DNA of 63,167 nt, filler included, from Globobulimina sp. (GCA_003354225.1; 53 parts of 53 records of this genome joined end to end with filler, not necessarily neighbours in it); one strand, 5' to 3'. Shown: positions 5,288-42,812, counted from the whole stretch's first letter. Notes: generated by a model from the sequence alone, not told the origin. Made by a program: numbers and translations.

Positions 5288-5364
5288 GGTGACCTAGCTC
5301 AATTGGCAGAGCATTGGTTTGAATGACAGACCAATTGGATGTAGGTTCGAATCCTACGGTGAGA
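5288..5364 (+). ncRNA. tRNA-derived sequence (pseudo-tRNA or SINE head) with intact Pol III A and B boxes
   Basis: D arm GCTC/GAGC, TTGGT/ACCAA stem with an 11-nt loop, T arm GTAGG-TTCGAAT-CCTAC; acceptor stem broken (GGTGACC vs GGTGAGA). Confidence 0.75.
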
Positions 5365-21503: not shown

Positions 21504-22429
21504 TAACAAAATATACGCAGTCAGCGAAGATATTTTATTGGAAACCAGCATTTTAAAATACCTACAACAGCAAGAAAATTGTGCCAAGTCCATGGTGACA
21601 TGCGAGCAATTTTTTAGAACGTACATCTCTTTCTTTTCTGACATCTGTCTGTTATCCCATCTGTCGGTGTACTTATTATAAAAATATATATCTAGTGACA
21701 CTGCGTACTATTTAGTAATGTCTGATGGTGGGAATTCTCTCTTTGAGTTCATGCAGAAGGCGCATCAATTAATAAGGGCCGGTAAAATCGAGATAAGTCA
21801 TTGGAAAAACGTTTGTAAAATAATATTCAAGCAAATGCTTGAATGCATCCAATTTCTTCATAGCCACAACGTTTGTCACTTTGACATCTCGTGTGAGAAT
21901 TTCCTAATTAATGATGTCCCCATTGAGATTGTGGCGGAGTGTGGAGATACACAGCAGCACAAAATTAGATTTTTAACGGACGATATTCAGCTCAGATTGT
22001 GTGACTTTGGTATGTATTTTATTGGTTTGCAAAGTGTATTTTATTATAAAACCTTAAATAATGACAGGATTAGCGCAGCTATTTATGGATAAGAAGTGTT
22101 TGAGCGATAAGTATGTCGGGAAAGCAAATTACAAATCCCCCGAAGTTGCGAATGAAAGCAAGAAATTTAATGCGCGACAAAATGATATTTGGTGCGTTGG
22201 CGTGTGTTTATGGATGATTTTGACGGGGAGTAATTTATGGAATGTAGCCGAAATATCAGATGTCATATTTGCTTATATTATTAATGGGCACTTAGGATTT
22301 CTGGTGGAAAATTGGAATATGCAGAGCTATGTTGATCGAGATGTGATTCATTTGTTTGAGTCTATATTTCAATACGAACAACATAGAGTTTGTTTAAATA
22401 AAATTAAAGAGCATACATGGCTCAGTTAA
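21504..22429 (+). CDS. Ser/Thr kinase (HFDISCEN type); introns 21621-21695 and 22010-22067; 5' partial
   Basis: HFDISCEN, DFG, YKSPE, NDIWCVG. Confidence 0.92.
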
Positions 22430-22763
22430 ATATTAAATATAATTTATATTATTATAAACTATATATTTATTATACAAATGCCTTGTTATATAATGTTTAT
22501 TTGTTTGATCTGTATTCGTTTATTAAATCTAAAGAATCTGTACATATTAATTCTATTCTATTTCGCTTGTTTTTTTTTGTTTTATATAATTATATAANNN
22601 NNNNNNNNNNNNNNNNNNNNNNNNNNNNNNNNNNNNNNNNNTTAATTAATTAANNNNNNNNNNNNNNNNNNNNNNNNNNNNNNNNNNNNNNNNNNNNCTA
22701 TAATTATAATTATTCTGTTATTTACATATAATATAAAATTGCAATGCAATCTATTAACATACA

Positions 22764-23560
22764 GTGATTATTACTATTTCTTGGTAATGGAAGATGGTGG
22801 AACTTCCTTATTTGATTTTATTGCTCGCGCTCATCGATTTGTGTCAATTGGCACAATTCAAATGTCCGAATGGCACAAAGTTATACAAATAATATTTAAA
22901 CAAATAATTGAATGCATTGAATTTATTCATTCAAAATACGTTTGCCATTTTGATATTTCTTTGGAGAATTTCGTGGTAAATGATGTTCAGGTAAAATGTG
23001 TAGAAAATAGTGATAAAATTGAATTTGTTAAAGAAGATATACAAATTAAATTATGCGGTATGTTTTTTTGTTGTTTTTGTTGTTTGTTGTTATACTCGCA
23101 TTTTTTACATATTTTTTGTTATACATATTTTTGTTACACATATTTGTTATACATATTTTTTTTATATTATTTAGATTTTGGTTTAGCAGAAATGTTTGAT
23201 GCTGCATTTCATTCAAATAAATGTGTTGGTAAACAGCCGTATAAATCGCCAGAGATTGTAAATAAGAAAAAAGATTTTGATGCAAAAGCAAATGATATTT
23301 GGTGTGTGGGAATAATGTTATTTATGATGGTAATTGGGAGCGGCCCATGGAGTGTTGCCAGTAAATCAGATAATCTCTTTATGGCTATATTTTATGGAGG
23401 ATACATTCGACAAATCTTAAAATCATGGAACAAACAGACATATGTCGATAATCATCTTATTGAATTATTTCAATTATTCTTTAGAAATGAAGATAAGCGA
23501 ATTACTATTCAAGATATTAAAAAACATCCATGGATTTTTAATTATAATTCGGAGTTATAA
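22764..23560 (+). CDS. Ser/Thr kinase (HFDISLEN type); intron 23058-23174; 5' partial
   Basis: HFDISLEN, spliced DFG, YKSPE, NDIWCVG; paralogue of the previous kinase. Confidence 0.92.
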
Positions 23561-24303
23561 GTATAGAGCCAGTATAAAAACTGGTTTGTAAAGTAAAATA
23601 CTTTTGGTTTGTAAATTAAATAATTAATTACTAGTAATATTATTGTATTTATTGTCGCCAGCCTCACATAAAAATTTTGTAATTGTTATTAAATAATAAT
23701 TGTATTATATATATATTTTTCTTGAAAGTATAATAACTTATATGAGTTTGTTTGTGTGTTTTTTATTATTTTTTTTTTTTTGGAGTGCCTGNNNNNNNNN
23801 NNNNNNNNNNNNNNNNNNNNNNNNNNNNNNNNNNNTTAATTAATTAANNNNNNNNNNNNNNNNNNNNNNNNNNNNNNNNNNNNNNNNNNNNGATATACTG
23901 CACTTTCAAATTAAATAAATATACAGTCATTTTCAAAGGTTGCGAACGTTTTCCTCCCTACGGAACAAGTACAGGTTTGGAAACACTTTTGTATATAATA
24001 TTAAATATTATCGTATGAGATATGTACTGATTCTGTACATATTTCATTTGAGAGTTGTCCCATTTATTAAATAATAAGAATTGAGATTGGAAAGGGTGGC
24101 AAACATTCCATTTGGTAATATGCAAAGACAAACCAACAAACAGCAACAATTTTTGGTTTCTGTTTGTAGCGGCACACCTACTATAAATCCGATAATTTAA
24201 GCTGTTTTTTAATCTTTGTCAAGTAACCTCAAAAGAGTCGTAAAAGTTGTGCAGTTGTGCGAGGATGGGATGCGTCAATGTTAAACGTCATTTATTAATT
24301 CAT

Positions 24304-41793: not shown

Positions 41794-42198
41794 TATTTGC
41801 TTCCGGACAGAAAACATTTAATGATGCGCGAACTGGCATATTCATTTGAATTGCGATACAAAACTAAACTAGAAAAATTAATCAATAACATGGAATTTTC
41901 GTTGAACACTATTCAAGACGAATACCAAGAAATATTAGACTTGTTGCTAGGCAAAAAGATCACATGGAAACGAATCGTTTTAATATTTTCTATAACCGGA
42001 TACTTAGCTTTAGAAAGTATAGTGAGAAATAAGCCATCTAATATAATTACGTTCATGGACACTCTGTTATCATTGTATATCGATAGAAAATTGTTTTATT
42101 GGGTATTAGCTAATGGTAATTGGGAACATGGGTTAGAAAAATGTTTGCGCCAATATTTGAAATCGCATCAGCGGAACAGTTGGTGCGTCATAATTTAA
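41794..42198 (+). CDS. Bcl-2 family protein ending in CaaX (CVII); possibly 5' partial
   Basis: BH3-like MRELAYSFE, BH1 ITWKRIVLIFSITG, BH2 WVLANGNWE at typical spacing. Confidence 0.8.
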   Translation, partial: YLLPDRKHLMMRELAYSFELRYKTKLEKLINNMEFSLNTIQDEYQEILDLLLGKKITWKRIVLIFSITGYLALESIVRNKPSNIITFMDTLLSLYIDRKLFYWVLANGNWEHGLEKCLRQYLKSHQRNSWCVII

Positions 42199-42201
42199 AT
42201 T

Positions 42202-42570
42202 TTACATAAAATATTTTAACAATTTTCGAAAATTTCGTCTGTCTTCTCTATTTCTGAGCTCAATGATTGTTTTATCATTGATATTATCAGCTTCGAAGGC
42301 TCTTATTTCATATGAATCTTGTTTCTCCAGTTCGTCATATCCCATACACTGTACTTCAATTTGATATCCAGACTCGGTTTTACCAACAATCATAGTATCA
42401 CTCGATCCATTTAAAATGGCATATCTCATATATTTGTACAAATTATTCAGCATTTCTTTTGGTACTTGTATTTTAATATCTTCTTCAACAGAGACAACTT
42501 GACCGATTACAAGCACATTGCCTGTCTTGTGCAATGTGGCCCAAAAATCTCCTGCAATAAAATCAGCCAT
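42202..42570 (-). CDS. Orphan 122-aa protein convergent with the Bcl-2-like gene
   Basis: Complete intronless ORF; stop codons 3 bp apart; TATATAA about 45 bp upstream. Confidence 0.7.
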   Translation of the reverse strand: MADFIAGDFWATLHKTGNVLVIGQVVSVEEDIKIQVPKEMLNNLYKYMRYAILNGSSDTMIVGKTESGYQIEVQCMGYDELEKQDSYEIRAFEADNINDKTIIELRNREDRRNFRKLLKYFM

Positions 42571-42812
42571 GTTAACCCCAACGAGAGCTCAATATACATA
42601 TGTATACTCATGTCTTATATACTTTTAGTATAGTGTACATATAGCCCGGAGGCATCAGAAACATGCAAGCCAATTGGTTGACCAGTCATTGGTCAGTCTT
42701 TGGAGAGAATTGTGTGGTTTGAGTGACCATTGAAAATTTAATTGTTGAAATTTTATGTTGAGTTTGAGTGACCATTCAAAATAGGGTCTACGGTGTCCCC
42801 TTCTCCACTACT
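42571..42812 (-). mobile_element. Probable Polinton/Maverick terminal region
   Basis: Minus strand begins AGTAGTGGAGAAGGGGAC at 42812; repeated GTTTGAGTGACCATT and TGACC/GGTCA motifs; virus-like gene packing inside. Confidence 0.5.

Follow-up and report, generated by a model that had tools for sequence, protein, structure and literature searches.

An intronless Bcl-2-family protein with a putative prenylation signal in place of its transmembrane anchor, from a Globobulimina-associated assembly

Introduction

The Bcl-2 family is held to be an animal invention, and its C-terminal transmembrane (TM) anchor is held to be crucial for function, as set out in the available sections of PMC8998228. 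The closest described relatives of the protein reported here are the animal pro-survival members Bcl-xL and Bcl-2. It shares with them the Pfam domain PF00452, the motif order BH4-BH3-BH1-BH2, an all-helical bundle (TM-scores of 0.75-0.92), the Trp-Arg pair of BH1, the BH2 Trp motif and a conserved FELRY stretch of alpha2-alpha3. It differs from them in overall sequence (about 21-24% identity), in a very short alpha1-alpha2 loop, in a Lys at the BH1 Gly position and in an Ala-Tyr where BH3 usually has Gly-Asp. The C-terminal end differs as well, since a CaaX box lies 22-24 residues after the BH2 Trp and neither a TM helix nor an intron is found there.

In its last residues the protein is instead comparable to the Ras, Rho and Rap GTPases, which likewise end in a flexible tail that closes with Cys-aliphatic-aliphatic-X, X being Ile or Met. 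Doubly lipidated GTPases have a second Cys just upstream of the CaaX box, as do most variants of the locus described here. Known boxes of CaaX-anchored GTPases include CVIM in K-Ras4B and CVIL in Rap2B (PMC9141697, accessible text). The likeness ends at the cargo, which here is a Bcl-2 fold with no conserved polybasic stretch and a lipidation that is putative. A third group for comparison is formed by the viral Bcl-2 homologues (iridovirus, African swine fever virus, gammaherpesvirus and poxvirus proteins in BFVD), which have the Bcl-2 fold and often diverged BH motifs, but which match the model of a full-length homologue of our protein more weakly (E 2e-3 or worse) than cellular proteins do (1e-7).

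Caspase-like proteins have been described in the foraminifer Reticulomyxa filosa (Klim et al. 2018, PMC5982838) and are an earlier example of a foraminifer with an apoptosis component of "animal type", albeit from a different protein family; Bcl-2 and Bax have no occurrence in the accessible text of that study. A literature search whose coverage mostly excluded subscription journals returned neither a natural CaaX-bearing Bcl-2 protein nor a Bcl-2 homologue from Rhizaria. Here, we describe an ORF from an assembly of Globobulimina that, on balance, is probably a real, selected and intronless gene of a foraminiferal nuclear genome, encoding a compact Bcl-xL/Bcl-2-like protein in which a CaaX box has taken the place of the TM anchor.

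Composition of the window and the source contig

The window, by which we mean the whole stretch of 63,167 bases that was analysed, is composed of 53 separate contigs, each of 1093-1095 bp, sorted by length and joined with N/TTAATTAATTAA spacers. Because these contigs are concatenated and unrelated, any inference from genes that appear to be neighbours across a spacer is invalid, and the contig at 41794-42886 is the only real context of the Bcl-2 ORF. Besides the Bcl-2 gene, this contig carries only a small gene in convergent orientation and a short repeat.

On the other contigs, genes of eukaryotic cellular type occupy long ORFs that are mostly uninterrupted, and many orphans are also present. 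The cellular genes include those for histone H2A, an actin-family protein, myo-inositol oxygenase and kinases, as well as SUN, CAP-Gly and EMC2 domains. Two paralogous protein kinases of similar sequence are encoded on contigs 21504-22597 and 22698-23791; on the first of these contigs the kinase is divided between two overlapping frames, suggestive of either a short intron or a frameshift. The sole Rfam match in the whole window is a tRNA (5292-5360, plus strand, 38.3 bits), and the contig that bears it, with a GC content of 40%, is the strongest compositional outlier among the 53.

Family membership, fold and selection

The ORF under study (41794-42198, plus strand) consists of 134 codons and a stop, and is truncated at its 5' end by the contig edge, to which the frame stays open; the first in-frame ATG is at 41821. 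The stop codon, TAA, occupies 42196-42198, and the protein ends in ...KSHQRNSWCVII. It is a true Bcl-2-family protein, as the preliminary description of this DNA had supposed from its motifs. The Pfam Bcl-2 profile PF00452 is matched with 44.7 bits (gathering score 31.4; E 2e-11), residues 11-110 covering positions 1-100 of a profile of 100, and all five clade relatives compared (P0002, P0003, P0004, P0006 and P0007) also score above the cut-off, with 40.3-63.8 bits. In a phmmer search against PDB sequences, Bcl-xL and Bcl-2 were the best hits (E 2e-10), with residues 11-115 of the query aligned to residues 90-193 of Bcl-xL, a span that runs from BH3 to just past BH2.

The Bcl-2 fold was confirmed by structure prediction. 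An AF2 model was made of P0003, a full-length homologue that is 79% identical and stands in for the truncated window protein, from an alignment of 65 sequences. The model is confident (pLDDT 89.3, pTM 0.85) and contains seven helices. Foldseek against the PDB placed human Bcl-xL and Bcl-2 first (E 1e-7, probability 1.00), with TM-scores from 0.78/0.84 to 0.82/0.92, while the known viral Bcl-2 folds reached at best an E of 2e-3 and TM-scores of 0.58-0.68.

The frame is under purifying selection. A deposited DNA relative (L001; PJEL010278876.1, 1102 bp) is 93% identical over the overlap, and the comparison of the two ORFs over 132 codons gave a dS of 0.243, a dN of 0.045 and a dN/dS of 0.19. Variation at the locus is extensive in run X1, from which 60 contig pieces were recovered (14 in the identity class of ≥99%, 25 in 95-99%, 16 in 90-95% and 5 in <90%). 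Among the variant letters listed inside the ORF from this run, 14 of 29 are synonymous, although only about a fifth of sites are synonymous; they include a TGC to TGT change in the codon of the CaaX Cys and a CGA to AGA change in that of the BH1 Arg at 41971. Run X2, a marine sediment metagenome, matches parts of the contig on the side of the neighbour gene only, and not the Bcl-2 ORF, and runs X3 and X4 gave no match.

Relatives and the N-terminal region

A k-mer-seeded search recovered only four close homologues, on contigs of 853-1237 bp: P0002 (90% identical to the window protein), P0003 (79%, 167 aa), P0004 (78%, 167 aa) and a fragment, P0005. An exhaustive profile search of 1.84 billion representatives yielded 170 matches at E ≤ 1e-3, of which the best after the query's own cluster were P0006 (172 aa, E 1.7e-20) and P0007 (161 aa, E 3.4e-14). 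These two are 39% identical to each other, and P0006 is 31% identical to P0003. The k-mer search with P0006 as query returned P0006 itself only, a scan of the genome-contig collection recovered no relative, and none of the annotated animal proteins came closer than about 30% identity to the window protein. The window protein belongs to an intronless subfamily that is small and deeply diverged and has a CaaX box in place of the TM anchor.

The 167-aa forms carry an additional N-terminal BH4-like helix, followed by a very short alpha1-alpha2 loop; this BH4/alpha1 helix is present in P0003, P0004, P0005, P0006 and P0007. In the window gene, the corresponding helix would lie beyond the contig edge. 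The loose end of a 1121-base X1 contig runs upstream of 41799 in frame, with an N-terminal sequence that, read by eye, is similar, so the window gene is most likely of the 167-aa type and cut by the end of its contig. The last two upstream codons of the window differ by one base from those of P0004 and P0005. The sequence that precedes the shared Leu-Pro codons in L001 bears no relation to the 167-aa forms, and the 380 bases before these codons contain no BH4-like coding sequence. At the place of the BH4 helix this contig has unrelated sequence (234-616), preceded by the end of a different upstream gene at 3-233. The L001 copy therefore seems to have undergone rearrangement or truncation at its 5' end, and is not a simple orthologue.

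Departures of the BH motifs from the family norm

The BH3-, BH1- and BH2-like motifs named in the preliminary description are all present on the plus strand, and its reading of BH1 as TWKR rather than NWGR is likewise real. The BH1 core (41962-41973) retains the Trp and Arg and has Lys for the usual Gly, and this form is kept in all four close homologues that reach BH1. Across the relatives, the column holds Gly in 122 of 151 sequences and another residue in 29, so a BH1 without Gly is unusual, not unique. Lys occupies it in five sequences, namely four of the window clade and P0054. The latter, a TM-bearing protein outside the CaaX clade that reads SWKR, is an independent case of Lys at this position. 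Since P0006 and P0007 keep the Gly, the Lys is a later change within the clade.

BH2 (42100-42123) has the pattern W-x5-N-W, reads W-V-L-A-N-G-N-W and aligns to the BH2 of Bcl-xL. In the BH3-like helix (alpha2; 41818-41859), the usual Gly-Asp reads Ala-Tyr. The Asp column is itself variable among the relatives (Asp in 62, Glu in 22, Tyr in 10), and the window protein, with Tyr, lacks the conserved Asp. This Asp is needed by the death ligands of the family, and pro-survival members do without it. The Ala-Tyr pair thus argues against a death-ligand role and for a receptor role like that of Bcl-xL.

Once bound to a membrane, it would behave as pro-survival members of the family do, and the Lys in BH1 probably narrows or changes what its groove binds. 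The same Lys might also abolish BH3 binding altogether, in which case the protein may not regulate death.

A CaaX box in place of the transmembrane helix

The protein ends in the CaaX box CVII (42184-42195), which together with the TAA stop occupies 42184-42198 on the plus strand and forms a putative prenylation signal with a conserved Cys at position -4. A hydrophobic tail is lacking, as first noticed in the preliminary description: over the last 45 residues, no stretch of 17 residues exceeds a Kyte-Doolittle mean of 0.91, and a TM helix was called in the relatives at a mean of at least 1.8 over 17 residues. With this threshold, a clear TM segment after BH2 is found in 45 of the 145 other matches listed. 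The window protein has 24 residues after the BH2 Trp, and the CaaX clade as a whole 22-24.

Six complete tails are available: CVII in the window protein, CIII in P0002 and P0003, CTII in P0004, CTIM in P0006 and CNYM in P0007, the last being a less canonical CaaX box. Cys stands at -4 in all six of these complete members, against 3 of the 145 other Bcl-2 matches listed; the a2 residue is Ile in five and Tyr in one, and X is Ile in four and Met in two. P0003 and P0006 align to their last residue with the CaaX Cys in register. Homologues therefore keep the box down to 31-39% identity, which the preliminary description had left as a check.

A maximum-likelihood tree was built with 56 rows from the first 65 listed matches (P0001-P0065), leaving out nine fragments or near-duplicates (P0005, P0019, P0020, P0035, P0038, P0045, P0053, P0060 and P0061). 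P0074 and P0076 had likewise been marked for omission, and fall beyond the first 65. The six CaaX members form one clade, with a support of 99/91 when the tail columns are included and of 97/96 after removal of all columns past the BH2 Trp, a bootstrap that had not fully settled. As the clade holds without the tail columns, the type of tail changed once on the tree and was kept through deep divergence. The proposal that a CaaX box replaces the TM anchor is thereby upheld, by the conserved Cys at -4 and by a clade that is independent of the tail; prenylation itself is the step that we infer.

The region between BH2 and the C-terminus also sets the clade apart in its gene structure. An intron directly after the BH2 Trp is known in the Bcl-2 family. 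Among the other matches with a recognisable BH2, 40 of 107 have Val directly after this Trp, followed by unrelated sequence, and 35 of those 40 have no TM segment. From their sequence, these Trp-Val entries (within P0008-P0152) look like gene calls that read into the intron, and many metagenome-derived Bcl-2 entries would accordingly have false C-termini. In the CaaX clade, on the other hand, coding sequence runs from the BH2 Trp directly into helix alpha8 with no introns, the stop of L001 lies at the same place as in the window, and the full forms of 161-172 aa are single ORFs.

The neighbour gene, the repeat and mobile elements

Three bases from the Bcl-2 stop lies the stop of a convergent gene of 122 aa (42202-42570, minus strand). 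In L001, too, the 3' end of this gene is found beside that of the Bcl-2 protein. The gene has six homologues (71-76% identity) and is part of a conserved family that is unnamed. The protein matched no Pfam family, and an ESM Atlas search gave only sub-threshold matches (0.81 or lower). Its AF2 model (pLDDT 85.7) best resembles PUR-alpha repeats I-II, with a weaker likeness to Whirly and MRP proteins (E 3e-3, TM 0.63-0.67), and gives a first hint of a protein that binds single-stranded nucleic acid.

Upstream of the neighbour gene is a short direct repeat of two copies (42717-42782, with units at 42717 and 42762) and no coding capacity. The summed depth of X1 contigs over this stretch is 146-182, against about 20-60 elsewhere, and it is probably a dispersed small repeat.

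The preliminary description had taken the Bcl-2 gene to be encoded by a mobile element, a claim that we reject as unsupported, the window being made of concatenated contigs. No transposase, reverse transcriptase, integrase or terminal repeats were found on the contig at 41794-42886; the reverse transcriptases and the recombinase of the window are on other, unrelated contigs and say nothing about the Bcl-2 gene. These are a tyrosine-recombinase (phage-integrase family) ORF and two reverse-transcriptase ORFs, each on a separate contig (5977-6990, 7472-8263 and 38216-39307), and the assembly is rich in retroelement and Crypton/DIRS-like sequences.

Host of the gene

The gene is most likely to reside in the nuclear genome of a benthic foraminifer, and this is the least certain part of our explanation: we rate a foraminiferal host at slightly better than even. 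According to the accessible text of PMC6783311, the PJEL deposit to which L001 belongs comprises the contigs left unclassified after binning of a metagenome of picked, pooled Globobulimina foraminifera, and the draft genome of the foraminifer has a GC content of 34.25%. Since L001 was not binned with that draft genome, the assignment rests on association and composition. The composition of the Bcl-2 contig fits a foraminiferal host: its GC content is 33.7%, and its 3-mer distance to the centroid of the window ranks 19th among the 53 contigs, so that it is compositionally ordinary. The many variants of the locus in one sample likewise fit pooled individuals of the main organism. We lean towards a gene family that is foraminiferal or foraminifer-associated and not a stray animal gene. 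The preliminary description had asked whether an animal contaminant or a transfer accounts for the presence of the gene, and proposed k-mer binning among its checks; in the 3-mer comparison, the contig agrees with the bulk of the window.

The strongest competing view, which we consider unlikely though well worth weighing, gives the same prenyl-anchored Bcl-2 protein to a co-sampled small animal (meiofauna, prey or an epibiont), as a lineage-specific animal Bcl-2 paralogue and perhaps a retrogene. In its favour, the family is described as metazoan in the available sections of PMC8998228, the best matches in both sequence and fold are animal Bcl-xL and Bcl-2, and L001 is among the unbinned contigs rather than in the bins of the foraminifer. 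Several observations pull the other way, none of them decisive. The clade has no intron after the BH2 Trp, where 40 of 107 other matches bear the signature of read-through; the composition agrees with the bulk of the window and with the published foraminiferal GC; the 60 variant pieces of run X1, spanning identities from <90% to >99%, suit the main organism better than a trace contaminant; and no annotated animal protein is closer than about 30% identity.

Some host other than the foraminifer, an associated animal or a virus is a less probable source than an animal. Of similarly low probability is a giant virus of a protist, or a viral insertion, in which the protein would be a captured Bcl-2 homologue controlling the death of the host. 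Viruses are known to carry Bcl-2 homologues, and an AT-rich contig without introns, with convergent genes 3 bases apart and an orphan as neighbour, would suit such an origin. However, scans of the viral-contig collection with the clade profile, the neighbour protein, P0006 and P0007 recovered no relative, the model is matched less well by viral Bcl-2 folds (best E 2e-3) than by cellular ones (E 1e-7), and the composition is the same as that of contigs with cellular genes. The contig also carries no viral hallmark gene, although at 1.09 kb it is too short to judge by this.

Proposed membrane anchoring

The C-a-a-X is conserved well beyond what chance would give, and over deep divergence, so that the tail is best read as the site of a prenyl anchor, and prenyl anchoring is, on this pattern, the best-supported candidate mechanism for the window protein. 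In the P0003 model, the last six residues (162-167), which follow the last helix, have a pLDDT below 50 and are disordered; such a tail, predicted to be accessible and flexible, is as expected of a prenyltransferase substrate. GGTase-I takes Ile, Met, Leu, Phe and Val at X and FTase takes Met (PMC11304957 and PMC9141697, accessible text). The Ile at X of CVII would thus fit geranylgeranyltransferase-I, to which it points, and the relative ending in CTIM looks like a substrate of FTase.

Under prenyl anchoring, a cytosolic CaaX prenyltransferase would attach an isoprenoid to the Cys, after which the last three residues would probably be clipped and the Cys methylated, and the lipid would keep the bundle of helices attached to an organelle membrane on its cytosolic side. 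A further lipid may contribute. Residue -5 is Trp in the window, and every X1 contig that covers 42183 reads Cys instead, so a Cys-Cys pair is the common form; in most variants, this extra Cys could add palmitate. As the window variant has Trp in place of Cys at -5, and as its basic residues upstream are not conserved, a second membrane signal is not general.

The Cys may instead have been kept for another reason (palmitoylation alone, a disulfide, metal binding or a degradation signal), the protein being soluble or peripheral and carrying no isoprenoid. Some Bcl-2 proteins do work without a true TM anchor, and the less canonical CNYM of one member would be at ease with this view, yet we hold it improbable, given that the Cys is always exactly at -4 on a disordered tail and that a hydrophobic a2 and an Ile or Met at X, each in all six members, follow the grammar of CaaX prenyltransferases. 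It is extremely unlikely that the CaaX ending comes merely from reading on into intron sequence, and that splicing would append a weakly hydrophobic stretch from another frame. A GT donor inside the Trp codon (42183), a pyrimidine tract with an AG near 42258 and an 18-residue stretch of the downstream frame (Kyte-Doolittle mean 2.09) would permit it, but the GT is missing in L001 and in every X1 contig at that base (42183 G>C, 25.9 of 25.9 depth), the would-be exon is the antisense of the conserved coding sequence of the neighbour, and five further sequences, with identities as low as 31%, preserve C-a-a-X-stop, as an intron would not. We rejected a spliced TM tail on these grounds.

Implications

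A conserved Bcl-2 subfamily in which the TM helix has been swapped for a lipid anchor would be a natural experiment on the membrane targeting of the family. A prenyl anchor is reversible, can be blocked by drugs and is not specific to one organelle. The protein likewise offers a naturally occurring groove in which the BH1 Gly is Lys. With a foraminifer as host, one could test directly how the Bcl-2 family and mitochondrial apoptosis arose, in a lineage outside animals that is known to have caspase-like genes.

The broadest form of the proposal, that Foraminifera (Rhizaria) own a diversified, intronless Bcl-2 subfamily anchored by prenylation instead of a TM tail, we put at somewhat below an even chance. 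If true, cellular Bcl-2 proteins would for the first time be known from outside the animals. Taken with the caspase-like proteases of Reticulomyxa, they would mean either that an animal-type module of death and survival long predates animals, or that animals and foraminifera exchanged it in the distant past.
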